Below are positions 10,579-43,035 of a stretch of 50,879 nucleotides of DNA, piece by piece. Both the position numbers and the translations under genes were made by a program. This DNA is from Candidatus Thorarchaeota archaeon (GTDB taxonomy: Archaea > Asgardarchaeota > Thorarchaeia > Thorarchaeales > Thorarchaeaceae): NCBI GenBank assembly GCA_016839605.1, contig JAEOTX010000051.1, positions 1 to 50,879 on the forward strand. The letters are read 5' to 3'. Under the pieces are notes generated by a model. The model made no database searches, had not been told where the DNA came from, and was given only the letters and a program-made list of their open reading frames with translations. Numbering within the stretch: the stretch's first letter is position 1; every line of letters starts with the position of its first letter.

Positions 10579-11157
10579 CTAAATGGGTTTTGTCAGAACA
10601 CTTGCACGCATTGCATCTCGAAAGAGGTGTTGGAAGGCTTCAAGGATGTTGAGTCCATCCTTGGCAATGCTTCTGAACACAGGGACTGATCGCGGAAGCT
10701 TTAGACGCTCACGTATTTCATCTTCCTGAACAGCCCCAGGAAGGTCCTGTTTGTTGAGGCAGACTATTATCGGCAGGGGTCTCTCCTCCTCTGCTACCAA
10801 TGCTACCAGCTCATTCCAACTTGCCAGATTCTCCTGTAACAGGTGTTCCTGAGAATCAACCATGAATATAACTCCATCAGCACCCACAAGGACCACTTCT
10901 CTTGTCGATCTATAGAAGTCTTGACCAGTTGCTGACCAAACATGTGCGTTAATCTTCCAGCTATCGCCCAATGCGAAGGGAATCGTGCCAAAGTCACAGA
11001 ACATAGTCCGTCCCACAGTGTTCTCAATGGATGTCAGCTTATCTGCATAATCAAGGCTCGAAAAAAGCCAACGTATAGCTGTGGTTTTGCCGCTCATTGC
11101 AGGACCAAAGAATACAATCTTGAGACCGACCGTACGAGTACCATAGTCTATAATCAT
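10579..11157 (-). CDS. MglA-type small GTPase (Ras superfamily)
   Basis: KIVFFGPAMSGKTT (G1), GRTMFCDF (switch I with MglA-type RT), ATGQ (G3 lacking Asp), NKQD (G4), SIA (G5). Start moved to ATG 11157 after GAGGAGTGA. Confidence 0.9.
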   Translation of the reverse strand: MIIDYGTRTVGLKIVFFGPAMSGKTTAIRWLFSSLDYADKLTSIENTVGRTMFCDFGTIPFALGDSWKINAHVWSATGQDFYRSTREVVLVGADGVIFMVDSQEHLLQENLASWNELVALVAEEERPLPIIVCLNKQDLPGAVQEDEIRERLKLPRSVPVFRSIAKDGLNILEAFQHLFRDAMRASVLTKPI

Positions 11158-11176
11158 CCCTTTCTTCACTCCTCGA

Positions 11177-12097
11177 TTACGTTCCCCACATACTGTCAAC
11201 CCATGCCCCAAGGCCTGATAGTGCACCAGACTTCACACAGTCAGAGAAATCTTCGTGCCACTCTGCACGGATGAAACGAATAAGGTCTGTCAAATCACCG
11301 CCTTCCCATCCGATTGCCTCATACAGATTTCTCTCTGTCAAGGCAGTGGATGCGCCAAGTTCCCGAGCTAGACGGATTCTGGAAAGCAGAGTAACTGCTC
11401 TTCTAGCTGCATGCACATAATTGCTTATTTCCTCATCAAACACATCATGCGTGAGCTTTTCGGATTCATCATCAAGTTTCAGGACTGCATTTACAATGCT
11501 ATTTGATACATTGACTCCACGAAGTGATTTTCTTAGGAGTCGACGGATTCTTTCAAGTGATTGCCGTTTTCTTGTCAGGATTTTACTTACTATCTTCTTC
11601 TCCACTTCCAGACTGCTACTACATGGCTCTATGAGAGAGAAATTCATGGCTGAGGGAGAATCCACGCTTAAAATGCCGCAATTGCTGGAATTCTGTAGTA
11701 CTCGATGAATCACTGTCTGCATCATCTCTTCATCTACATGGATTCCCAATACACTAGCTCCAATAGGGATTGCAAGAAGCCACCCAGGAAATCTGGTTAT
11801 ACGTTCCAGAGCCAAGCGCAGGTTTGATGAAAGCCCACAGACAATGGTTCTGCTAACTTCGTAGTTGTGCTTCTCTTCCTCCCAAACTGAAAGAAGCTCA
11901 CTTTCGGATGTGAAATCACGCCAGAACACAAGCTTGTGGTGGTGGGGGCATAGCATGGTGAGGCTTTCAGTGATATCATCTACCAGTTCAACATCTTGAC
12001 CAGTGACCAAGATAGGAAGACGATTCATTACGGAATTAAGTAGAAGCGGAAAGTCGTCCCCCATTAGCTCAATCATTCGCATTATAGAATAAGTCAT
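11177..12097 (-). CDS. Hypothetical protein, candidate DENN (folliculin C-terminal-like) fold
   Basis: N-terminus SIMRMIELMGDDFPLLLNSVMNRLPILVTGQDVELVDDITESLTMLCP resembles the cDENN core; ATGA overlap with the Roadblock gene. Confidence 0.55.
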   Translation of the reverse strand: MTYSIMRMIELMGDDFPLLLNSVMNRLPILVTGQDVELVDDITESLTMLCPHHHKLVFWRDFTSESELLSVWEEEKHNYEVSRTIVCGLSSNLRLALERITRFPGWLLAIPIGASVLGIHVDEEMMQTVIHRVLQNSSNCGILSVDSPSAMNFSLIEPCSSSLEVEKKIVSKILTRKRQSLERIRRLLRKSLRGVNVSNSIVNAVLKLDDESEKLTHDVFDEEISNYVHAARRAVTLLSRIRLARELGASTALTERNLYEAIGWEGGDLTDLIRFIRAEWHEDFSDCVKSGALSGLGAWVDSMWGT

Positions 12098-13041
12098 GGA
12101 TCTCGCCTCGCTAAAACAACTCCATTGTCAGTCCCTCCAGCCAAAAGCAGTTCCCTCAGATCATCTGGAACTGAGGGGCGCATCACTTCAGCAGTACCGA
12201 GAACCCTCTTGATTTCCCCGATATAGTGCTTGAGTAAAAGCCGCATGAGACCAAGTTTCTGACCGCCACGATTTACCCATAGACTGAACACCCCATTGGG
12301 CACTGCATAGATGAAGTGTCGGATTGGACCAGCTTCGCAGAGTACAGTTTGAAGGGAGCTATTTCGCAGCGTTCGAACCACGCGTTCTGAGGCATCATGA
12401 AGAGCAAATGACATTGCAGCAAGTCTGTCATTGGTGAACCCCTCTAGAGAAACACGAACGCCACCACTGAGGGAAAGAAAGACAGAGTCGATATCAGGGA
12501 TGCTATCATGGACCTGTCGCATTAGTGCTCTCAGTGTAAGAGCTTGAGACCGATCAAGTGAGATGATTGACCGTGATGTGGTATAGGATGTGTCATGTCC
12601 TTCAGCCACAGCAAACCCACTAAGAACACGATGGGTTTCGTCATTGCTGTAGGAACGTAGTGGAGGGAGCCTACCATCCACATGTTGACGCAGCAAGAAT
12701 GAAACACGGGAGAGGTTATCTTTCATCTCTATGAATAGCGCCGCAAGATTCACTCTGGGTGCTGTTGTAACCGTCAGGAAGTAGTCAGGATCATTTGGAA
12801 GCGATGCAAGAAAGACCTTGGAGGTCTCGGACTCCATGAGGAGATACTTGAATTCACCATGAATAAGACGTGCAACTCCATATATTGCACATGTTGATGA
12901 TGCAACCGCGAATACCTCTTCCCTGCTGAACCAGACCCCTGCACTAGCAACAGGGAGTCCATCCTTCTGAATCAGGACTACATTTTCAACGCCGGCTATC
13001 ATTTTGATATTTTGCAGCGTTTCGGTTAGCTCGTCAGTCAA
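12094..13041 (-). CDS. Tandem (double) Roadblock/LC7 (MglB-like) domain protein
   Basis: Two repeats of the Roadblock pattern: GVENVVLIQKDGLPVAS...NLAALFIEMK and DIDSVFLSLSGGVRVS...KLGLMRLLLK. Confidence 0.85.
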   Translation of the reverse strand: MTDELTETLQNIKMIAGVENVVLIQKDGLPVASAGVWFSREEVFAVASSTCAIYGVARLIHGEFKYLLMESETSKVFLASLPNDPDYFLTVTTAPRVNLAALFIEMKDNLSRVSFLLRQHVDGRLPPLRSYSNDETHRVLSGFAVAEGHDTSYTTSRSIISLDRSQALTLRALMRQVHDSIPDIDSVFLSLSGGVRVSLEGFTNDRLAAMSFALHDASERVVRTLRNSSLQTVLCEAGPIRHFIYAVPNGVFSLWVNRGGQKLGLMRLLLKHYIGEIKRVLGTAEVMRPSVPDDLRELLLAGGTDNGVVLARRDP

Positions 13042-13157
13042 TCGCTCAGCTCCGGACCTAGAAGATGGTCCAATGTAGAATCTCGGAGGTCACTATATAA
13101 CCACCACACAGACTGTCTTCTTCATGGTGTGGTTTTGAGCGAAGCTTTAGCTAATAG

Positions 13158-25351: not shown

Positions 25352-26308
25352 ATGGATCTAGACCTCTGGACAGAGAAATATCGCCCTCCCACACTCGGAG
25401 AGATTATTGGACAGGAATCAATCATTGAGAGTCTAACCAAGTTCGTGGAGAATAGGAATGTACCACATTGTTTGTTCAGCGGGCCGCCAGGCACAAGCAA
25501 GACTACCGCTGCAATGGCGATGGCAAGAGATCTCTTTGGCGATACTTTTGATCGCAACTTCATGGAGCTAAATGCAAGTGATGAAAGAGGTATTGATGTC
25601 GTTAGAAACCAAATAAAGAACTTCGCCCGGACTATGCCTGCGGGAAATGCTCCATTCAAGATTCTGGTCTTGGATGAAGCAGACCACCTTACTGCTGATG
25701 CTCAACATGCGTTAAGACGTACGATGGAATCGTATGCGGGCTCATGTAGAATGATATTGATTTGCAATTATTCAAGTAGGATAATTCCACCAATTCAGTC
25801 TAGATGTGCAATATTCAGATTTGCCCGCCTAAGTGATGACTCGATGGCCAAGAGATTGAAGTACATTGCCAAAAGGGAGAAGGTTTCTGTCAATGTAAAT
25901 GGACACAAAGCCATACTATATCTTGCAGAAGGAGACATGCGTGCCGCTATCAACCTCCTTCAAGCATCTGCATCAGCAGGGGAAAAGGTGGATGATGCAG
26001 TAGTCTATTCAATAGCCGGTAGAGCGAATCCCAAGGCGATTAAGGAGATGTTGGACTCTGCAGATGTGAACTACGAAGACGCTCTAGAAAAGCTAAGGGT
26101 GCTCATCTATCAGCAAGGAGTATCACCCGTAGATTTAGCAAGGCAACTACATAGAGAGATCCTAAAACTGGACATCTCTGAGAATCAAAAGATGCTGATT
26201 CTTGAGAGGGCTGCAGAAGTTGAATTTAGAATAGGAGAAGGGGCAAGTGGTGAAGTCCAGTTGAGTGCACTATTAGCTCATATAGGACTGGAACGGGGTA
26301 AATCATGA
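25352..26308 (+). CDS. rfcS: Replication factor C small subunit
   Basis: WTEKYRP, GPPGTSKTT, ELNASDERGIDVVR, LDEAD, SRC motif, GDMR. Confidence 0.97.
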   Translation: MDLDLWTEKYRPPTLGEIIGQESIIESLTKFVENRNVPHCLFSGPPGTSKTTAAMAMARDLFGDTFDRNFMELNASDERGIDVVRNQIKNFARTMPAGNAPFKILVLDEADHLTADAQHALRRTMESYAGSCRMILICNYSSRIIPPIQSRCAIFRFARLSDDSMAKRLKYIAKREKVSVNVNGHKAILYLAEGDMRAAINLLQASASAGEKVDDAVVYSIAGRANPKAIKEMLDSADVNYEDALEKLRVLIYQQGVSPVDLARQLHREILKLDISENQKMLILERAAEVEFRIGEGASGEVQLSALLAHIGLERGKS

Positions 26309-27525
26309 ATCACAAGAATCTACCGTGGCCAGAACTTCATCGACCTACGAGTCTCGTACAATTGGCTGGCAACGTTGATGCAATAAGAGGACTGAAAGAA
26401 TGGGTTCAGTCCTGGATTAGGGGATCACCTACTAAGAGAGCTGCATTGCTAATTGGCCCTCCAGGCGTTGGAAAAACTGCTTCTGTTGGAGCGCTTTCTC
26501 ATGATTACGACTTAGAACTGGTAGAGTTCAATTCTAGTGATAAACGAAACAAGGGGAGTATCGAGAATCAGGTCTGGAAAGCAGCAACACAGCAAACATT
26601 GGATGGCAGACTTCGTCTTCTTCTTTTGGACGAGGTAGACGGGCTCTCCGGGACCAGTGATCGGGGAGGGGTGGGTGCAATCCTCAAAATCGTTGAAGAC
26701 ACAGTCCATCCTATCATAATGACTGCAAATGATCCGAGCAGCCCACGACTCAAAGATTTACTGAAGATCTGTAAGGTGTTCAAATTCGACCCGATCGAAC
26801 TGAATGACATGGTGGCTGTCATTAGAGAGATTGCAGCTGCACATGATTCCACATTTACCGATGATGTGTTAGAGGGAATTGCGGACAGGGCTGGAGGCGA
26901 CCTTCGAGCTGCAATATCTGATCTTGAAACTCTCTTTGTAAGCGGACGCACGTCAGATGTTGGACTACCATCACGTGACGTACGTCGTGAGGTTAGGGAC
27001 GCCTTTGGACGATTATTCATGACTACTGATCCAGAGGCTGCTAGGCGCGTTGTTTCAGAATTAGATATAGACCACAATCAGCTTCTTCTGTGGCTTGAAG
27101 AGAATGTTCATCTTCATCTCACGACTCTGGAAGAACTTGACCAAGGGCTTGAATATCTTTCACTTGCTGATTTATCCCTTGGACGAATTTGGAGGCGTCA
27201 GAACTGGAAGTTGTTGGCCTATGTATATGACTTTCTAGCAATTGGGGTGTCTGCAAGCAGGAAGGTGACGCCATATAGGAGTGTCGAGTATTCTCAGCCA
27301 TCCTGGCCAATGCTAATCTGGCGTGGGAATAGAAAACGTGACAAAGAATCAGACCTTCTTCTCAAACTATCTAGAATTGCATCGGTTTCTAAGAGAAGAG
27401 CGGCACGTGCTTATAGAGATGCAATGTTCGAGATGGTCAGACAAAATCCCAGATTGAAAGAAGCCTTTTCAGACTGGCTAGAAGTCAAGGAGGGCTTCTT
27501 TGATGAAAGAAGTAGTCGTCACTGA
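26305..27525 (+). CDS. rfcL: Replication factor C large subunit
   Basis: PWPELHRP, GPPGVGKT, EFNSSD.R, DEVDG, GDLRAAI, WLEEN; ATGA-coupled to rfcS. Confidence 0.93.
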   Translation: MNHKNLPWPELHRPTSLVQLAGNVDAIRGLKEWVQSWIRGSPTKRAALLIGPPGVGKTASVGALSHDYDLELVEFNSSDKRNKGSIENQVWKAATQQTLDGRLRLLLLDEVDGLSGTSDRGGVGAILKIVEDTVHPIIMTANDPSSPRLKDLLKICKVFKFDPIELNDMVAVIREIAAAHDSTFTDDVLEGIADRAGGDLRAAISDLETLFVSGRTSDVGLPSRDVRREVRDAFGRLFMTTDPEAARRVVSELDIDHNQLLLWLEENVHLHLTTLEELDQGLEYLSLADLSLGRIWRRQNWKLLAYVYDFLAIGVSASRKVTPYRSVEYSQPSWPMLIWRGNRKRDKESDLLLKLSRIASVSKRRAARAYRDAMFEMVRQNPRLKEAFSDWLEVKEGFFDERSSRH

Positions 27526-28324
27526 TAGCACTTAAGGTACGTCTGGACCTCCTGAGATAATTCATATGACCACTCAACTGTTTTTGAATCCTTGAAAGGG
27601 CATACCTACTAGTATTCATTCGAATAGGAATCGCTGTTTCCACTAGTACTAGGCATTCTGGTGGAGCTGGCTCAATACCTCCTGGAATTCTGTCACTACC
27701 ATTGAGATGATTTGAGAACGTTTGTATGTTCATTGCGCTGGTGCCAATCTGTAGAAGCAGTGATACTGTCTTTCTGATTAACTTCCAGAGAAAGTTAGTA
27801 CCAAAGATGTCCATAGTAAGGCCATCGTCGGATTCCAGCAGACATGCATTGAGAATAGTAGTTGTAGTCGGTCTATCACCATCTGGCTTGGAGAGAAGAG
27901 AGAAATCGCGGGTTCCTGACAGCAGTTGTGCAGCAGTTCTCATAGATTGCAAATCCATGTCGGATGAATCTATATCGAAATAATACCTGTAATGTCTCAT
28001 AAGTACGTCATATCGGGGATTGAAATTGGATGGGGCTAAAGTAGATGCCCACAATGCAATGTCAGATGGAAGATGTCTATTTACTCTGTCAATGTCGAGT
28101 TTCTTTTCTGTTTTTATTAGCACAATTTGACCTATGCTATGCACTCCACGGTCAGTACGGCCCGAGAATTGGACTGTCTGAGTAGAGTAATCGGTCTTAC
28201 TCTTCGGGTCCCACTGATTCAACGCGTCAATCAGTTCACCCTGGACAGTTATGAGGTTTGGCTGAAATTGGGATCCATGGTAACGATCTCCGAGATAGAA
28301 GAGACGTGTGATATAGGAATGCAA
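27485..28324 (-). CDS. truA: tRNA pseudouridine(38-40) synthase
   Basis: Y.G..YHGSQFQP...TVQG, SGRTDRGVH, RHYRY, G..DF, FLWKLIRK. Confidence 0.93.
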   Translation of the reverse strand: MHSYITRLFYLGDRYHGSQFQPNLITVQGELIDALNQWDPKSKTDYSTQTVQFSGRTDRGVHSIGQIVLIKTEKKLDIDRVNRHLPSDIALWASTLAPSNFNPRYDVLMRHYRYYFDIDSSDMDLQSMRTAAQLLSGTRDFSLLSKPDGDRPTTTTILNACLLESDDGLTMDIFGTNFLWKLIRKTVSLLLQIGTSAMNIQTFSNHLNGSDRIPGGIEPAPPECLVLVETAIPIRMNTSRYALSRIQKQLSGHMNYLRRSRRTLSAISDDYFFHQRSPP

Positions 28325-28646: not shown

Positions 28647-29840
28647 TTAGGTAAGTAAATCGAGCAGATGTTGTTCTAGCATTTCAGCTGGCACATCAGA
28701 GAGTCCTATCAGAGTTGTCTGGCCTCTCTGTCCAGCACCAGAGCGTTTTGTGTCTAGAAGTCCATGAGCGTTTAGATCCTGCACCCACTCCCAAATCTGA
28801 GTGTGAGCCCTTGGTTCTTCGTTATACTCCTCACATATCGGATGATACATCTCTTCGAGCTCACCCATTGTGATGTAGGCACCCCGATTCACCTTGAGTT
28901 GTCTTGCGGCTGCTAAAAGAAGAAGCATGTTCTGTCGTGGAAGAGCTGCAAATACTTCCTTCCTCAACTCAGGATGTGTGTCGGCTTTAGCCTTACGAGC
29001 ATAGTCAGGAATCACCTTTCTGGAATCCGTACTATCGGCCTGTTTCCCTGCACGCCACAGGAGTTCGATTGCATAACGAGCATCCCCACGTTCTGAGGCA
29101 ATATCACAGATGAGCTGTAGTGTCTCGTCCATGACTGTATCTTGCTCGAATGCAGTATCTACTCGCCCCTTTAGAATATCATACAGAGCAATGGATGCAT
29201 ATTGATTAAAACGCAGTATGTTTCTTTGAAGTGTGCTTAATGTACTTTGGTCCAAGATGGTTTCATCGAGAGGTATCTTTCTCCCCACTCCGATTACAGA
29301 CAGACGTTGGGGAGCATTCAACTGATCATCCGTTAGCCGAGTCAGGTCGTAGAGAATGTCAGCACCTCGTTGTCTAATGAAATAGTCGAGCTCGTCAAGT
29401 ATCAGTAGAAGGTATCTATCTTCTTCGTCAAGTACCTCGATAACCATCTGGAGGATTTCTTCTGGTGAGTGGCCTCGTCTGGGAAACCTTGGTTTAAACT
29501 CTCTTAGCATCCGCAGATACACAAGGTAGGTGCTTTTGCTTACTCGGCAATTGATATGCAGCTTATGCAATCTTATGCCCCGTCGGGTAGCTGCTTTAAC
29601 CATTTGATCTGCAAAACGCTTAGTCACAGCCGTTTTTCCAGTGCCTACTGGACCCTCGATAATGAACTTCTGACTTGTACGACCGGGGGAGGAGATTAGC
29701 GTCTTGAAACTCTGGGCAAGTGTTCTCAACTCGGGCTCTCGATGTGGAAGAGTTTCAGGAACATAATCGATAGAAAGTAATTGCTCCGCTTTGAATACAC
29801 TCTGCCGACTCAGTTCGTCTTCCACATAGTCATGCGTCAT
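28647..29840 (-). CDS. cdc6: Orc1/Cdc6 replication initiator
   Basis: DYVPETLPHRE, GPVGTGKT, INCR, ILDELD, GDARYAIELL, C-terminal wHTH with GQRGQT. Confidence 0.96.
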   Translation of the reverse strand: MTHDYVEDELSRQSVFKAEQLLSIDYVPETLPHREPELRTLAQSFKTLISSPGRTSQKFIIEGPVGTGKTAVTKRFADQMVKAATRRGIRLHKLHINCRVSKSTYLVYLRMLREFKPRFPRRGHSPEEILQMVIEVLDEEDRYLLLILDELDYFIRQRGADILYDLTRLTDDQLNAPQRLSVIGVGRKIPLDETILDQSTLSTLQRNILRFNQYASIALYDILKGRVDTAFEQDTVMDETLQLICDIASERGDARYAIELLWRAGKQADSTDSRKVIPDYARKAKADTHPELRKEVFAALPRQNMLLLLAAARQLKVNRGAYITMGELEEMYHPICEEYNEEPRAHTQIWEWVQDLNAHGLLDTKRSGAGQRGQTTLIGLSDVPAEMLEQHLLDLLT

Positions 29841-33769: not shown

Positions 33770-34807
33770 GTGTGGTCTTTGATTGATGAAACATTTGAGG
33801 CTATTCAAAACTTGTCTTGGTCTTGCCCCGACTGTTCGGGTCTGGTAACGACCAACCAGGGCTATATAGTATGTGTAGAATGTGGCTTGGTGATTTCTAG
33901 AGAATACGTATCGCCCACCTATCAAATGGGCGAGAAAGTATCTGAAAATGCTCCTGATGCAAGCGTATACGTTTCTCTTGGTAATCGTATGCATATTGTT
34001 GATGGATTGGGAAGCTATATTGGTTTCCACAAGGATAGATATTTCCAAGATGCACAAGGTCAGACTCTCACAGCACGATCTCAAAAGAAGTTCAAGCGGC
34101 TTAAAATGATATACAGTACGCGAATACGGATTGGCAGAAATGAAGCAAAGTACAGAGCTCTCAGAACGCTCAACCATGTTTCAAAACTGCTTATGTTAAA
34201 CGAACAGGTCCGTGATCGTACTGCCTATCTCTACAAGAAAATATCCTCTGAATCTTCAGAGAAGATTAACAACAATATCCTGCTTATTGCCGTATGCCTT
34301 CTAATGGCTGTGAGAGAGTTCAAGGATGGAGCGCCAATAACCTTGGATGAGATAGCTAATACATTCGAGAAGTGCGGTCATCGTGTGAACGTCAGGGCGA
34401 TTGTAAGAGAAGCTCTGAGACTCAAGTCACTAACAGGTGTTGCTCCTGAAATTCGTCGTCCAGATGACTATGTACCAAGAGTCTTGTCTATGTTGATGAA
34501 CAGTGATAAGGTGCTCAAAAAGGTGATAGCTCGTGGATGGGAACCAAAGAAGTATGAGAATGCGCTCAGAGACAAGATCTTTGAAGTTTTAGAGATGATA
34601 CCAGCATCTAAGAGAGGAGGACGAAATCCCTTCATATTCACTGTTTCTGCGGCGTATGCAAGTGATCGTCTAGTTGCAGATGAGCATGGAAAAAGGTCCG
34701 TGCTTACTCAGAAGCTCACTTCAGAGGCCACTGAAGTAGCTGAGTACAGCATTCGTGATCACTTTGGAATGATGAAGAAAGTGATTGCATCAGCTTCTCT
34801 AGCTTAG
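33770..34807 (+). CDS. Divergent transcription initiation factor B (TFB/TFIIB) paralog
   Basis: Zn ribbon CPDC...VCVECGLV; two cyclin repeats (YVPRV, GGRNP, TQK...VAEYSIRDH). Confidence 0.85.
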   Translation: MWSLIDETFEAIQNLSWSCPDCSGLVTTNQGYIVCVECGLVISREYVSPTYQMGEKVSENAPDASVYVSLGNRMHIVDGLGSYIGFHKDRYFQDAQGQTLTARSQKKFKRLKMIYSTRIRIGRNEAKYRALRTLNHVSKLLMLNEQVRDRTAYLYKKISSESSEKINNNILLIAVCLLMAVREFKDGAPITLDEIANTFEKCGHRVNVRAIVREALRLKSLTGVAPEIRRPDDYVPRVLSMLMNSDKVLKKVIARGWEPKKYENALRDKIFEVLEMIPASKRGGRNPFIFTVSAAYASDRLVADEHGKRSVLTQKLTSEATEVAEYSIRDHFGMMKKVIASASLA

Positions 34808-34830: not shown

Positions 34831-36564
34831 TTGAATCATGCTCCTAAAGATGAGGTCAAGAGAATGCGGGAAGATGTACTCAGAGTAATTAGATGTCCGG
34901 ACATAAGATGCAAAGAGTGTTCCGAGCTGGTTGCTCCAGATTGTTCAAAGCTCTCCTTGCTATTGGAAGAGAAAACTAAGGAGAAGGTGATTATTCTGGA
35001 AGCTTCCAGAAGTCTTCTTCATCTTGGGGGAATTTCAGGTCCTATCCCAACCAGGCCGCCTTGGAAAGGAGAAGGATGGGAATCAATTTACATCGGTAAT
35101 CGAGAAGAGTTCCCGGACAAAGATTGGTGTCCTATAGATGCTTACTTGGTTGGGCCGTATCTTTCGTTTTACTTCTCACTGACGAGTGAAAAGGAGGTTT
35201 TTCACCGGTCGTATCCATTGGTGAGGACTTCACTCGAATATGGACTGTTGCAAAAACTAAGTGAATCAATTGAGAATGAATTTCACGAACAAGCAGCAAA
35301 AAGGACTGACATCTCCGTTCGACTCAAGCAAATAGCAAACAACGTTTCCAGAGATATCCTGACATCGCTGCCTGAGATAAGCAAAACGACTCGTGAGAGA
35401 ATCTCTAGAATTGTAGCAAACAAAACAACTGTTCTGGACTCACTTCTCCCAATTCTTTTGGATGATGATGTGGAAGAGGTGTATATGGACCGTCCAAGGA
35501 AGCCTATCTATTTTGACCATTGTAGGTTAGGAAGATGCATTTCTAAATACGAGCTTCATCAGGATGATGTGCCGCGTTTTGCAACACTCCTACGAGCAGA
35601 GAGTAACCTCCATCTTGATAGAAGAAACCCATCTCTCAAAACCGATCTGAATCTGTTAGATATGAATCTGCGAGTTTCTGCAAGCCTGCCACCACTTAGT
35701 CCTGATGGTCTACACCTAGAAATTCGAAGGGCAAGAAGAAGACCATTCACCATACTGGACTTGATACGTAATGGTACACTACCGACCGAGGCAGCAGCAG
35801 CACTTCTCCTTGCACTGGGCTGCAGGTTTAATATAACCATAACTGGAGGGCCTGGAACCGGCAAGACTACTCTATTGAATGCACTTGACTTGGATAGTCC
35901 GAAAGTGTGGAGGAAGATCTATATCGAAGATGCAATGGAAAGTAGAAATCTTGAGAATCATCACCAAGTTCGCTTCAAGGTCGATCCGGTTGATGAGATA
36001 GATGGACATTTTGACAAATCCATAGAGATCGTCAAAACTCTCCATAGGTCTCCAGACTATGTCATACTTGGTGAGATTCAAACTGCAGAACACAGTCAAG
36101 CACTCTTTCAAGCTATTGCCGCTGGTCTTCGTGCAATGCAGACCTGTCATAGTTATTCCGCAGCTAGTCTTATGTCCCGTTGGACTACAGGACATGCTAT
36201 CGAAAAATCAAGTTTAGCCATGATGGATTTGATTGTGACAATGGTACGTCCAGTGCCTGGAGAGTCGATTAGACGAGTCAGTGAAATTGTTGAGGTGCAA
36301 CGTGCGGTTTCAGAAGGAGTTCTCGAGTTCAATGGACTTAGTACGGTCTACAACTATCATTCATCTCAGGATTTACAATGGGTACCTGACGGAGCGTATC
36401 TTTCGTACGCACGAGAAGCTGGGCATGAAAGCCATATTCAGGCATATAACGGAATAGTTGATTCTCTAACTCGAAGTTTGCAGACCTCAGTAAATGATAC
36501 TCACAGAGATTTGGGAGAAGAGATTTGGTCGCAAACACATCCATTGTGGTCTGCAGGAGTCTGA
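34831..36564 (+). CDS. Type II/IV secretion traffic ATPase (TadA/CpaF/VirB11/FlaI family)
   Basis: LLDDDVEEV, LPPLSPDG, GGPGTGKTTLLNAL, IED, RSPDYVILGEI, QTCH; Cys-rich N-terminal extension. Confidence 0.9.
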   Translation: MNHAPKDEVKRMREDVLRVIRCPDIRCKECSELVAPDCSKLSLLLEEKTKEKVIILEASRSLLHLGGISGPIPTRPPWKGEGWESIYIGNREEFPDKDWCPIDAYLVGPYLSFYFSLTSEKEVFHRSYPLVRTSLEYGLLQKLSESIENEFHEQAAKRTDISVRLKQIANNVSRDILTSLPEISKTTRERISRIVANKTTVLDSLLPILLDDDVEEVYMDRPRKPIYFDHCRLGRCISKYELHQDDVPRFATLLRAESNLHLDRRNPSLKTDLNLLDMNLRVSASLPPLSPDGLHLEIRRARRRPFTILDLIRNGTLPTEAAAALLLALGCRFNITITGGPGTGKTTLLNALDLDSPKVWRKIYIEDAMESRNLENHHQVRFKVDPVDEIDGHFDKSIEIVKTLHRSPDYVILGEIQTAEHSQALFQAIAAGLRAMQTCHSYSAASLMSRWTTGHAIEKSSLAMMDLIVTMVRPVPGESIRRVSEIVEVQRAVSEGVLEFNGLSTVYNYHSSQDLQWVPDGAYLSYAREAGHESHIQAYNGIVDSLTRSLQTSVNDTHRDLGEEIWSQTHPLWSAGV

Positions 36565-39243: not shown

Positions 39244-42200
39244 ATGTCCAGCCATGTATTGAGCGAGGGAAGCCGATTTAAAGCACCCAGAAAAGCACAT
39301 CCGAGGTTATGGAGATGGATTGAGATTGGGTGGCTGTCCGGTATTATGGTCTTGACCATTTACTTTGTAGTGGTCTACCTACTCCCACTCTCAAGGCTAA
39401 TTGATCCTGTTTCAATTCCTTCCAAGCTGGCCATCGAAATCATAATTTCCTTATACCCAGTCTTGCTGGGCGGACTTTTAGTTCGTGGAAAGATTAGTTC
39501 TGAACAGATGCTGACAGCTGTCATAGAGGATGACTTGGTTTCAGTACATGTAGGAGATTATGTGATAGCGACATGCTGTCTTGATATCATCTCCGCTCCC
39601 GGATCGGTGCTTGTTACGAGAAATGATCGGCCAGAATATGCAACTGCATTCCTTCTTGCTCTTCGTGCAGGAATGGATAACAAAGTCAGCATGGCATATG
39701 AGGTCGGGGTCTGGGAAGGTGAGGTGTTTCTTCGAATTTTCATAACTGGATCAGGCAAGAGTATGCAGGAGGTTGAGAACACTCTTAGACGTGAAGCAAC
39801 CCGAACTGAGGCCATTTTGCTCTCCTCTCTCAATAATGTAGAACTCCAACAGCTTAGAGGGGATGACCTGAGTGAGGCGGTTTCTGGAATATTGTCACTG
39901 GACCTAGAGAGTGGTTCAGAACTAGTACCTGAAAAAATGCATACAGCGTTGTTATTGATTACTGGAGAGCCACGTGTTTCACCCAGTCTAGAAAGCTCTC
40001 AAATCGGGACTTTCATCTCCACTTCGCTTCGCCAAGGGTACAATGTAAGCTTCACATGCGTTTTTTCAAAGGCTAAGCCTGGACGTGAACAAAGAAAGCT
40101 GGAAGGACATTGGAAGACAATACGGGAGAAAGAGAAGAGAAATGAAGACTCCTTAGCAGACCACTCAGAAAAGAAGAAGCTATTACGTAGTTATGAGGAA
40201 ATACAGGGAAATGCAGGCTGGTTTGATTCTTCGGTTTCCCTTGCGATAAGAGCAGACACTCCCGATCAGCTATCAAGCACTCAAGAGGGTGTGGCTGGTG
40301 TTGTTCAATCAATATGGGGAGGAGAGGACGCACTCAAACTGAAACAGAAAAGCATCGGAAAAAGGGCTGTTTACAAGCTCCTTCTTAGACGACATATCGC
40401 ATCGCAGAGAATTCATGTCAGTAGATTGGCTGCCTTCTTGAATACTCCAGTTCAACAGTTACCGGTTATCACTGCATCTCCGGTTCCTGGCTTTTCCATC
40501 CCCTCGAAAGAATTTGTGAATAATGAGCTCATCATCGGAAAAGCTGTATTTGGAGGGCGCCGTCTAAATGATGTCGGTCTCAGACCCGAGTGGCTTCGAG
40601 AACATGTTGCGGTGATGGGTGCAACCGGCACAGGCAAGACTACTCTTGTTAAACACCTAATTGCAGAACTCAGTACGAAATCGAGTGTTCCATGGTGGAT
40701 ATTTGATATAAAGGGATCAGAATATCACGAATTAGTGGATTTATGTGACAATGACGTTCTTGTGTTGAAACCTGGGACAGACCCATCATTCGTGATTGAC
40801 TTTATGGACCCAGAGGTTGATTCTGGTGAAAGGCATGCCCACACGACCTTTGCAATCTTGAAAGAGCTGCTGAAAGAAAGAGGTGTGTCTTCAGAGCTAT
40901 CGCCTGCTATGGAGAAGCTTCTCCGTGAGGCAGTCCTTGAAATTGCACGTTCTTCAGATAACGGTAACTCAATTCAAGCACTTACTCAAGCAGTATCCGA
41001 GCTTGCAGAGAAAGACCGTACTGGTACCATGACCAGAGATGCACTCCTCAATCGATTGGAGATACTGTCACGCGAACCGCTTGGGAGTATTCTAAGTGGC
41101 GGTCGAAAAGCCCTTAGGATTTCAGATCTCATAGACAGACGAGTGATTCTTGATTTACAGCATGTCGCAAGAACTGGGGGCATGGAAGCAGCTCGCTTAC
41201 TCTATAATCTCATTGCCAAACGCATCTTTGATTGTGCACTGCATCGAGGCATAAGGCCTGGACTTCATCATCTAGTGATACTCGAAGAGGCTAGTAATCT
41301 TGTACCTGAAAGCTATACCAGACATACAGCTGCGGATGTGACAACGGGTGAATCTATGGTGATGCTCCAACGGGCTACCGGACAAGGAGTTATCATTATC
41401 TCAACTCGACCGAATGTGTCTTCAAACATTTTGGCAAATACAGCTACGAAAATCACTTTCCGTCTCCCCTATGACAGTCCCATCGGTGCAAGATTCATGT
41501 CACTAGATGAAGAACAGGAACGATATCTGAAGACACTGAAACGTGGAAGAGCATTGATTGTTTTGCCCGGAAGCGAGCCGTTCGAGATCGCTACACGACC
41601 ATTTGAAATGGCATCCGTTTTGAAGAAACCCATTGAGTCTTTGACGGATGATGAAACCAGAATTGAAGTCGAATCTGATGATGGCAGGGAATCCTCTCTC
41701 GAATATGATATGGAAGCTCAATCAAGACATGTTAGTGCTTCCAAGTCAATAGGAGCGGTCTATGACAGATTAGGAGAGCTAGGATCACATGTTGTGGCGT
41801 TTCTTGCCGCTCGGAGTATGGGAACTCAAGCAGAAATCCAAGGTATTTTGGCATCAATAGATCCTAGGATAGAGGATGATGACATAAGTGAGGTCATTCG
41901 TGATTTGGTATCCTTAGGAACAATTGAGAGAGAGGGATTATCGCTTGTGCCAGGTGACTTCATATTCACTCTGCCGGGCAAAGGACTTGATGCAGTGAGA
42001 ACAGCAATAACTGACTACATCATTGAAAAGCTCGGACTGCTTGATACTACGTGGGAACGGAATTCGGATGAAGGACCGGATATCATTCTTGATGATAGAG
42101 CCATTCTAATAATCCCTCAGCATCTCAAAGCGTCATCAATGAAAACAACTCTTTCCAAGATTCGGAATTATATGAACAATTTGGGGAATAATGTCATAGA

Positions 42201-43035
42201 GTTAATTGTGATTGTTAGAGGAAGTGTTGCCGCAGCCAAGCTTAGAGAAGTCATGGATGAAACGAACGAATTTGAAGCAGTCAGCATAGTTTCAGCATTT
42301 CCTAGTTCACTTGAAACAATGATTGAGAACTTAGTAATGGGGACCTCAACCAATGTAGAGTTGACAACTGATGACAATGAGATGGCCCAAGATAATGCAG
42401 GAGTTAATCTCATTGGGGCTATGCATGATGTTGGAACAGCCACAAACCGAGCAATACAGATGCGTCTGTGGTTTCAGCTGATTCAGGATTTTGTAGATTT
42501 GTCTAATGGTAGAACAGAATGGAGTGTCTTGTTGGAGTTCATTGAAACAACCGCTCTGCAATCACTCAAGGGAAAGTCCACCCCAATGAATGCAGAAGAA
42601 GGAAAACGTGCATTGACAGAGCTTCTGGCCGATGAAGTCTTGATGGCCCTCCGTGTTGGAAATGATTTTGATTTCATTGATCTAGATGAAGGACTTTGGA
42701 TAGTGAACTCAGGTGAATTAGGAAAGCTCAAGGATTCCGCCGTCAATGCTCTGGAGCAAGAACTGCAAAAACGACAAAGCTCGGTTTCTCGTAACCATGG
42801 CTACTACGATCTTTGCACAAATGGTATTTCCTATGTTGTCTTCCCGAATCAACAACAGCTCAACACGTTGCTTCATCTTCAGAGTGATATTGCATGTAGA
42901 ACTTGCAAATCAGAACGAATTGTATGTGTGTTGACCGCTGCAGAGTATCTTGAGGAAACTGTTGTCTTGCCAGATAACATCCTGCTTTATGACTTCTCAG
43001 AGTATGTTGCTGTGGCTAGTGCTACAGGACATTAA
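39244..43035 (+). CDS. Membrane-anchored VirB4/HerA-FtsK superfamily ATPase (CedB-like), 1263 aa
   Basis: Two N-terminal TM helices; VirB4-like N-domain; HVAVMGATGTGKTT, FDIKGSEY, LEEASNL, ILANTATKITFRL; ~450-aa C-terminal extension. Confidence 0.8.
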   Translation: MSSHVLSEGSRFKAPRKAHPRLWRWIEIGWLSGIMVLTIYFVVVYLLPLSRLIDPVSIPSKLAIEIIISLYPVLLGGLLVRGKISSEQMLTAVIEDDLVSVHVGDYVIATCCLDIISAPGSVLVTRNDRPEYATAFLLALRAGMDNKVSMAYEVGVWEGEVFLRIFITGSGKSMQEVENTLRREATRTEAILLSSLNNVELQQLRGDDLSEAVSGILSLDLESGSELVPEKMHTALLLITGEPRVSPSLESSQIGTFISTSLRQGYNVSFTCVFSKAKPGREQRKLEGHWKTIREKEKRNEDSLADHSEKKKLLRSYEEIQGNAGWFDSSVSLAIRADTPDQLSSTQEGVAGVVQSIWGGEDALKLKQKSIGKRAVYKLLLRRHIASQRIHVSRLAAFLNTPVQQLPVITASPVPGFSIPSKEFVNNELIIGKAVFGGRRLNDVGLRPEWLREHVAVMGATGTGKTTLVKHLIAELSTKSSVPWWIFDIKGSEYHELVDLCDNDVLVLKPGTDPSFVIDFMDPEVDSGERHAHTTFAILKELLKERGVSSELSPAMEKLLREAVLEIARSSDNGNSIQALTQAVSELAEKDRTGTMTRDALLNRLEILSREPLGSILSGGRKALRISDLIDRRVILDLQHVARTGGMEAARLLYNLIAKRIFDCALHRGIRPGLHHLVILEEASNLVPESYTRHTAADVTTGESMVMLQRATGQGVIIISTRPNVSSNILANTATKITFRLPYDSPIGARFMSLDEEQERYLKTLKRGRALIVLPGSEPFEIATRPFEMASVLKKPIESLTDDETRIEVESDDGRESSLEYDMEAQSRHVSASKSIGAVYDRLGELGSHVVAFLAARSMGTQAEIQGILASIDPRIEDDDISEVIRDLVSLGTIEREGLSLVPGDFIFTLPGKGLDAVRTAITDYIIEKLGLLDTTWERNSDEGPDIILDDRAILIIPQHLKASSMKTTLSKIRNYMNNLGNNVIELIVIVRGSVAAAKLREVMDETNEFEAVSIVSAFPSSLETMIENLVMGTSTNVELTTDDNEMAQDNAGVNLIGAMHDVGTATNRAIQMRLWFQLIQDFVDLSNGRTEWSVLLEFIETTALQSLKGKSTPMNAEEGKRALTELLADEVLMALRVGNDFDFIDLDEGLWIVNSGELGKLKDSAVNALEQELQKRQSSVSRNHGYYDLCTNGISYVVFPNQQQLNTLLHLQSDIACRTCKSERIVCVLTAAEYLEETVVLPDNILLYDFSEYVAVASATGH

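Follow-up and report, generated by a model that had tools for sequence, protein, structure and literature searches.

A Thorarchaeota operon encoding a tandem Roadblock protein, a predicted longin-less DENN-fold protein and an MglA-type GTPase, conserved across Asgard archaea

In eukaryotes, membrane traffic and nutrient signalling depend centrally on small-GTPase regulators of the DENN and longin/Roadblock kinds, such as FLCN, C9orf72 and Ragulator. In bacteria, the MglA-MglB system controls type IV pili, and MglB by itself is a sufficient GTPase-activating protein (GAP) for MglA (structures 3t12 and 6h5b). For the Asgard archaea, Liu et al. (10.1101/2020.10.19.343400; Nature 2021) predicted a conserved operon that encodes a small GTPase together with a Roadblock and a DENN protein, likened this operon to FLCN/Ragulator and called the GTPase 'Rab-like'.

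The trio described in this study lies in the window (the whole stretch of 50,879 nt that was analysed) on Thorarchaeota contig JAEOTX010000051.1, and it is very probably a copy of the operon described by Liu et al. (10.1101/2020.10.19.343400), with which it shares its gene content and wide conservation among Asgards. As that paper already made the point in 2020/21, the module is not new and the Thorarchaeota locus adds just another copy of it. However, the GTPase here is MglA-type rather than Rab-like, and the Roadblock partner is resolved into two MglB-like domains fused in tandem. A further addition is the tendency of the operon to have genes for a pilus ATPase, a TFB paralog and a HerA-like protein as neighbours, and this leads to a testable idea of what the operon's output is. 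The trio bears on the origin of eukaryotic GTPase regulators; in this compact archaeal version of them, Roadblock platform, DENN module and MglA-type GTPase come as separate proteins, and the operon is a simple system in which to ask what a lone DENN domain does.

In the list of open reading frames the three genes all lie on the (-) strand in the order Roadblock, DENN-like, GTPase (Table 1). The junction between the first two reads ...CCATGACT..., where positions 12094-12097 (ATGA) hold both the TGA that ends the Roadblock gene and the ATG that opens the DENN-like gene. With this 4-nt overlap and the 19-nt spacer that follows the DENN-like gene, the three genes are translationally coupled, and the tight coupling claimed in the original prediction (an ATGA overlap and a 19-bp gap) was read back from the sequence at the same coordinates. 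The GGAG within the spacer is a candidate ribosome-binding site for the GTPase gene, and the region upstream of the Roadblock gene holds a candidate promoter and ribosome-binding site for the operon as a whole. A GTG start for the GTPase (frame to 11226) was rejected because the N-termini of orthologs align with the ATG at 11157.

Table 1. Features of the operon and its junctions on contig JAEOTX010000051.1
Feature	Coordinates	Strand	Details
Tandem (double) Roadblock/MglB-like protein	12094..13041	(-)	315 aa; TTG start preceded by GGAG
Longin-less DENN-fold protein (predicted)	11177..12097	(-)	306 aa; stop TAA 11177-11179
MglA-type small GTPase	10579..11157	(-)	192 aa from ATG at 11157
Intercistronic spacer, DENN-like/GTPase	11158..11176	(-)	19 nt; GGAG 11169-11172, 11 nt before GTPase ATG
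Intergenic region upstream of Roadblock gene	13042..13157	(-)	116 nt; TTATATA 13094-13100, GGAG 13050-13053

Conservation of the operon across Asgards had been put forward as a check on the original prediction, and the arrangement proved to be widespread. The gene order Roadblock, DENN-like, GTPase on one strand was found in all 48 loci fetched, which come from at least nine GTDB families, and the intergenic gaps in these loci range from -13 to +21 nt with a single exception of 107 nt. An arrangement that recurs in this way is not due to chance. The DENN-like gene was detected in 165 of the 301 sampled Asgard genomes, mostly as a single copy (by family: f1, 74/76; f9, 57/68; f12, 15/19; f3, 4/4; f15, 4/4; f24, 5/7). 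Within 4 kb on either side, these three genes are the only ones common to 18 diverse loci, while the flanking genes vary.

The best phmmer matches of the GTPase among PDB sequences are MglA of M. xanthus (E 1.3e-29) and of T. thermophilus (E 1.4e-27), followed at a distance by Arl (E 1.9e-9), in agreement with the MglA-type assignment proposed originally. Its motifs comprise the P-loop GPAMSGKT, a switch I GRT (Arg50) that aligns with DRT of MglA, a G3 motif SATGQ (Gln79, no Asp) that aligns with TVPGQ of MglA, and the G4 motif NKQD. Across 21 orthologs there is no variation in the GRT, TGQ and NKxD motifs, including Arg50, Thr77, Gly78 and Gln79. Judged from its sequence, the protein is thus an MglA-type GTPase that keeps MglA's own switch-I arginine and catalytic glutamine and lacks the G3 aspartate. 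It has no extra domain and no C-terminal Roadblock domain, and it is encoded with an MglB/Roadblock partner in the same operon in 48/48 loci. A Rag-like GTPase was considered and rejected, since the match to Pfam Gtr1_RagA, at 21.8 bits, missed the cut-off of 22 and was much weaker than the similarity to MglA.

In the first protein a single chain carries two fused MglB-like Roadblock domains, the double Roadblock that had been claimed for it. The predicted model places unit 1 at residues 1-121 and unit 2 at approximately 159-285, with a low-confidence linker between them, and the Roadblock succession alpha-beta-beta-alpha-beta-beta-beta-alpha is present. The domains are at least as similar to MglB as to LAMTOR2. 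The pTM of 0.74 for the double-Roadblock model gives no more than a hint of a fixed arrangement of the two units.

The predicted structure of the middle protein (pLDDT 88.9) has a three-layer alpha/beta cDENN core at about residues 1-159, which contains a sheet of five strands, and then a dDENN domain at about residues 164-285 that is entirely helical. Its closest structural matches are the FLCN C-terminal domain, DENND10 and C9orf72/SMCR8, and its language-model neighbours (Pfam C9orf72-like, Folliculin_C/SMCR8_C and SPA/DENND11/Avl9) all belong to the DENN clan. Residue 1 of the model pairs with FLCN residue 345, the start of the FLCN C-terminal domain, so that no longin (uDENN) domain is present; a search for longer, fused relatives found none, which is weak evidence. 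Judged from the model, the protein is a cDENN plus dDENN module that lacks both a longin and nucleotide-binding motifs. Its residues Arg26, Pro28 and Trp304 are invariant. The original prediction had proposed a folliculin/DENN-like protein that stands alone without its longin domain. Both parts of that claim held up, and the by-eye alignment on which it relied, using a peptide that starts at residue 4, is in the same register as the structural one.

In sequence searches the middle protein itself had no Pfam match at E <= 1, and none at the curated cut-off of a DENN-clan family; NCBIfam gave nothing useful, and phmmer against PDB sequences returned chance matches only (EDF1 at E 0.3). The family HMM found no DENN chain among PDB sequences, only spurious helical matches, to ferritin (E 0.002). 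A Pfam scan of 38 relatives matched Folliculin_C in three (best E 4.8e-4) and DENN in one (E 0.093). The Folliculin_C profile had no match in the source archaeon's own genome, and across the 301 Asgard genomes it gave four sub-threshold matches, in proteins of 307-339 aa from families f5 and f21. Neither these proteins nor their neighbours matched any operon profile of the three at a threshold as loose as E 10, so they were rejected as diverged copies of the operon.

Taken together, the locus is likely to be a Thorarchaeota copy of a conserved Asgard three-gene small-GTPase switch. By analogy with MglB-MglA, the fused Roadblock pair may well form an intramolecular MglB-like pseudo-dimer that binds one GTPase and speeds GTP hydrolysis by positioning the GTPase's own Arg and Gln. 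The DENN protein would dock on the Roadblock platform, on the GTPase or on both, and Roadblock, cDENN and dDENN parts supplied as separate chains would rebuild the longin-DENN-dDENN module of eukaryotic DENN/FLCN proteins. For the DENN protein we infer a role as exchange factor (GEF), which is possible though far from assured, or as scaffold or effector, which is put forward still more cautiously.

The genomic neighbourhood suggests what such a switch might act on. Outside Thorarchaeota, genes for a Tad-type pilus ATPase, a HerA-like ATPase and a TFB paralog usually lie no more than about 10 kb from the operon. For the HerA/DUF87 ATPase encoded in the window, 8/8 cases outside Thorarchaeota have a homolog at most about 10 kb away on the contig that carries the operon, and 35 of the 39 Thorarchaeota cases have one within 35 kb; the pilus-gene linkage in Thorarchaeota could be inherited synteny. 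In eight of ten 20-kb loci homologs of the T2SSE ATPase and the TFB paralog flank the operon, and a Flp-like pilin was seen once. By analogy with the bacterial control of pili, the output of the switch might tentatively be placed in the spatial or temporal control of the nearby Tad-type pilus or HerA-like ATPase system. More speculatively, and rather improbably as a whole, the trio would be a switch dedicated to the polarity or assembly of an Asgard Tad-type pilus or HerA-like translocase system, in which the DENN protein would serve the MglA-type GTPase as its exchange factor or adaptor. On this view the DENN fold would first have helped to control a cell-surface machine in archaea and would later have been joined to longin domains and to Rab, Rag or Arf GTPases in eukaryotic membrane traffic.

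The same neighbourhood lends itself to a reading in which the DENN-like protein is not a regulator but an effector or adaptor that binds the GTP-bound GTPase and couples it to the neighbouring pilus or HerA-like ATPase machinery. In several Asgard families the operon is close to genes for a T2SSE ATPase, a TFB paralog and a HerA-like protein, which fits this, and so does the conserved C-terminal tail of the protein, low-confidence in the predicted model, whose motif GDxxxS[LM]WG could serve as a docking peptide. DENND10, one of its closest structural matches, acts as a structural subunit of the Commander complex (8p0v; PMC13392464). However, the trio is also found without pilus genes nearby, the linkage being absent from the examined loci of the Odin-like family f3 and of f15, and strict translational coupling to the GTPase would be more usual for a regulator paired with its GTPase. 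An effector role is a possible though doubtful alternative.

A second alternative is a complex of the FLCN-FNIP type, in which the GAP would consist of the Roadblock pair plus the DENN protein; the latter would dimerise or act as a scaffold rather than as a GEF, and a Roadblock/longin-like domain would supply or position catalytic residues. The best structural matches (the FLCN C-terminal domain, C9orf72 and SMCR8) belong to longin-DENN GAP complexes, and Asgard longins have a GP motif and an arginine finger in common with these GAPs (PMC12290439). Additionally, Roadblock unit 1 carries an invariant DGxP in its beta1-beta2 loop, but no invariant arginine was seen in that unit. The GTPase keeps its invariant switch-I arginine, so an external arginine finger is not needed, and in bacteria MglB alone suffices as the GAP of MglA. 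A GAP of the FLCN-FNIP type is unlikely.

It is also very improbable that the resemblance of the middle protein to DENN is due to convergence and not to homology, the protein being a degenerate P-loop NTPase-like domain (RecA, AAA or VirB11-like) with a helical appendix. Its topology is P-loop-like, but DENN-family chains outscore the P-loop NTPase-like matches by about 1.2-3.3 Z units and cover the helical second domain as well. No Walker A or B motif was found in the family, in which the loop after strand 1 reads xVxGxxxxx-VD without GxxxxGK[ST], and both the three Folliculin_C matches and the DENN-clan neighbours speak against convergence. That the three genes are merely adjacent, with no functional link, is scarcely credible given their overlap and short spacer and an order that is identical across families while the flanks vary.

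The likely reading as a three-gene GTPase switch can be set against the known systems. Compared with FLCN-FNIP, C9orf72-SMCR8, DENND1A/B and DENND10, the Asgard DENN protein has no longin (uDENN) in its chain and shares just 9-14% identity, and its partner GTPase is MglA-type rather than a Rab, Rag or Arf. The catalytic arginine of eukaryotic FLCN, C9orf72-SMCR8 and GATOR1 is located in the longin domain (PMC12290439); because this is the domain that the Asgard protein lacks, the DENN part alone predicts no activity. Compared with Ragulator-Rag (LAMTOR2/3 and the C-terminal Roadblock domains of RagA/C), the Asgard GTPase has no C-terminal Roadblock domain, the trio has no p18-like wrapping subunit, and the resemblance of its Roadblock domains to MglB is equal or better. 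The original prediction had seen in the trio a minimal prokaryotic prototype of the Ragulator-FLCN-GTPase module. As the GTPase is not Rag-like, this stands as a fold-level analogy only, and the module it described had already been published. The bacterial MglA-MglB pair of M. xanthus and T. thermophilus (PDB 6h5b, 3t12) is a further relevant system. There, MglB forms homodimers from chains with one Roadblock domain each; in the Asgard operon two diverged domains are fused and a DENN-fold gene is inserted between the Roadblock and GTPase genes.

The three genes of the operon (see table) are tightly coupled as the original prediction had described, with an ATGA-type stop/start overlap and a 19-nt gap that can be read directly from the sequence. 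At the Roadblock/middle gene junction, CCATGACT, the TGA stop overlaps the following ATG, and the middle gene ends in a TAA at 11177-11179, followed by 19 nt with GGAG and the GTPase ATG at 11157. A longer GTG-started frame for the GTPase was rejected because the N-termini of 21 orthologs start at the ATG position. The 116-nt spacer upstream of the Roadblock gene contains TTATATA and GGAG and is a candidate promoter of the operon. The neighbouring gene upstream encodes an HD-domain protein and the one downstream CTP synthase; the source genome is an Asgard of 3.08 Mb (80% complete) in which the window is contig C205.

Conservation of the operon across Asgards, which had been proposed as a check, was evident. 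A family profile search found the DENN-like gene, mostly in single copy, in 165/301 sampled Asgard genomes: 74/76 in the window's own GTDB family (f1), 57/68 in f9, 15/19 in f12, 4/4 in each of f3 and f15, and 5/7 in f24. Using this profile it was not found among the searched genomes of f5 (0/28), f22 (0/21), f14 (0/11) or f27 (0/11). The order Roadblock, DENN, MglA on a single strand was seen in 48/48 loci examined, and the junctions measured -13 to +21 nt in 19/20 diverse loci. Within 4 kb on either side, only the three genes themselves were common to 18 diverse loci; the trio is a self-contained three-gene module.

Features of the operon, its neighbourhood and related loci
Feature	Location	Strand	Remarks
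Roadblock gene	12094-13041	minus	315 aa, TTG start (ORF reading)
Middle (DENN-like) gene	11177-12097	minus	306 aa (ORF reading)
Conserved C-terminal tail of middle protein	11177-11221		residues 292-306
GTPase gene	10579-11157	minus	192 aa counted from ATG (ORF reading)
TFIIB-like gene (TFB paralog)	33770-34807
T2SSE (Tad/VirB11-type) ATPase gene	34831-36564
HerA/DUF87 ATPase gene	39244-43035		1263 aa
Window genes with homologs flanking the L069 trio	25352-26308, 27485-28324, 28647-29840, 46514-47728
MglA-like paralog L050, window's genome	G000:C192:37861-38376		44% identity
MglA-like paralog L051, window's genome	G000:C14:8527-8949		36% identity
Second MglA-like GTPases, f9 loci	L033:2217-2912, L034:5995-6681, L043:219-878, L044:2131-2820, L061:5170-5823, L062:6779-7459, L066:14185-14865
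Folliculin_C-matching loci L057-L060, f5/f21	G044:C38, G097:C66, G068:C176, G061:C1

In database searches the middle protein was closest to "hypothetical proteins" from Candidatus Thorarchaeota MAGs (74-94% identity). Pfam and NCBIfam searches gave no match, a PDB sequence search gave nothing meaningful, and only 63 clusters, mostly of ~300 aa, came out of 1.84 billion representatives that were searched exhaustively, whose named members are annotated Thor-, Hel-, Baldr- and Lokiarchaeia. The AF2 model (38-sequence alignment, pLDDT 88.9, pTM 0.86) has an alpha/beta domain to residue ~159 and then long helices. When this model was searched with Foldseek, as had been suggested for FLCN/DENND1B, the top match was FLCN (6ulg_L, E 2.3e-3, probability 1.0), and next came 8dhb, 3v42, 6nzd, C9orf72, DENND1A/B and DENND10. 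At its start the structural alignment places FLCN residue 345 on model residue 1, the very register that had been proposed by eye for likeness to the folliculin C-terminal DENN core. A P-loop-like resemblance of the fold is expected, given that the topology of the DENN core is minimal and P-loop-like while residues for nucleotide binding are missing from it (PMC3521125); the family lacks a Walker A motif. Independent hints agree with a DENN fold: Pfam Folliculin_C matched 3/38 relatives (best E 4.8e-4), and the families borne by language-model neighbours were C9orf72-like, Folliculin_C/SMCR8_C, SPA, DENND11 and Avl9. On the fold matches, register and hints together, the middle protein is a cDENN + dDENN module which, as had been claimed, stands alone without a longin domain; that searches found no longer fused relatives is weak evidence for the same. 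The tail, of low confidence in the model, carries a conserved GDxxxS[LM]WG motif (Trp304 in 31/34 sequences, Asp298 in 28/34) that could be a short docking peptide. Separately, f5 and f21, where the profile search did not find the trio, contain 307-339-aa proteins that weakly match the N-terminal part of the Pfam Folliculin_C model (E 1e-4 to 7e-4). None was matched by any operon profile, and they may be another DENN-like family.

Pfam recognizes a single Robl_LC7 domain (residues 6-90) in the Roadblock protein. The AF2 model (21-sequence alignment, pLDDT 76.9, pTM 0.74) contains two complete alpha-beta-beta-alpha-beta-beta-beta-alpha units, 1-121 and ~159-285; the linker that connects them is poorly predicted. 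Each has a structural match in MglB (residues 1-119 with M. xanthus 6h5b_C: 12.7, 1.5, 116; residues 159-285 with T. thermophilus 3t12_C: 11.1, 2.2, 125), which confirms the proposed double Roadblock.

The GTPase gave only generic Arf, Ras and Roc matches in Pfam. Against PDB sequences it matched MglA of M. xanthus (E 1.3e-29) and T. thermophilus (E 1.4e-27), with Arl the next family (E 1.9e-9). Its GRT aligns on the MglA DRT (intrinsic arginine) and its SATGQ on TVPGQ, which retains the catalytic Gln and replaces the Asp of DxxGQ; GPAMSGKT, GRT, TGQ and NKxD vary little or not at all across 21 orthologs. The GTPase is MglA-type, as predicted, and neither a Rag nor a Rab. The window's genome has two more MglA-like paralogs, one of which (L050) sits inside a 304-aa open frame and perhaps has an additional domain. 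Loci of f9 (Loki-type) encode another, longer MglA-like GTPase (217-231 aa, ~32% identical, E ~1e-20) on the opposite strand, 0.6-2.6 kb past the operon GTPase gene.

The original prediction saw in the trio a minimal prototype of the Ragulator-FLCN-GTPase module. The module is not novel: Liu et al. (10.1101/2020.10.19.343400) describe what is very probably the same operon, compare it with FLCN/Ragulator, suggest a GEF role and place its GTPase outside the Rag family. The coupling, co-occurrence and three fold or family assignments are established here, and the folds and gene identities had been named correctly, but the prototype reading was overstated for a GTPase of MglA rather than Rag type. 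If the trio works as MglA-MglB does, one GTPase would bind to the fused Roadblock pair, which would serve as its GAP by holding Arg50/Gln79 of the GTPase itself in position. DENN biology would have the DENN protein join this platform as GEF, scaffold or effector, and the three chains together would rebuild a longin/Roadblock-DENN-dDENN module piecewise. Published work discusses Asgard longins that resemble those of FLCN/SMCR8 GAPs (PMC12290439). Because the catalytic arginine of FLCN-type GAPs sits in the longin domain (PMC12290439), the DENN part alone predicts no activity. Thorarchaeota Roadblock and Rab-like structures are already solved (PMC10933270); no bench work on the trio was found in the literature.

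In the window, the TFIIB-like, T2SSE and HerA genes (33.8-43.0 kb) lie about 21-28 kb from the operon. A HerA-like ATPase homolog shares a contig with the DENN gene in 47 genomes, at no more than 35 kb in 35/39 Thorarchaeota cases (median 29.6 kb) and within ~10 kb in 8/8 cases from f9, f12 and f28. HerA-like homologs flank the trio in 8/10 non-Thorarchaeota 20-kb loci (f9, f12, f28, f24); most of these eight also carry T2SSE ATPase and/or TFB paralog homologs, and one a Flp-like pilin. Pilus/translocase homologs are within ~10 kb of the trio in f9, f12, f24 and f28 (loci L061-L068) and ~28 kb away in most Thorarchaeota; the 20-kb loci of f3 (small, Odin-like genomes) and f15 showed no such neighbourhood.

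Two further observations concern these flanks. At least 20 f9 genomes have the start of the DENN gene ~1.0-2.2 kb from a contig end (e.g. G071:C49:1631, G049:C28:1555, G192:C9:1593, G008:C15:1733, G156:C2:1410), which puts the assembly break within ~1 kb of the Roadblock gene on its upstream side. A repeat or strain-variable stretch, perhaps pilin/adhesin genes, may thus separate the trio from the HerA-like ATPase. In the small 1.4-Mb Odin-like genome of L069 (G001:C1:592000-611999) homologs of window genes (see table) flank the trio, so that some wider synteny with the Thorarchaeota window survives there in the absence of the pilus genes.

Because the immediate flanks of the trio are otherwise unconserved, the recurrent proximity suggests that the GTPase switch serves HerA/T2SSE surface machinery, though proximity is not proof. 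In bacteria, MglA controls type IV pili, and the link proposed here for the archaeal trio resembles that control.
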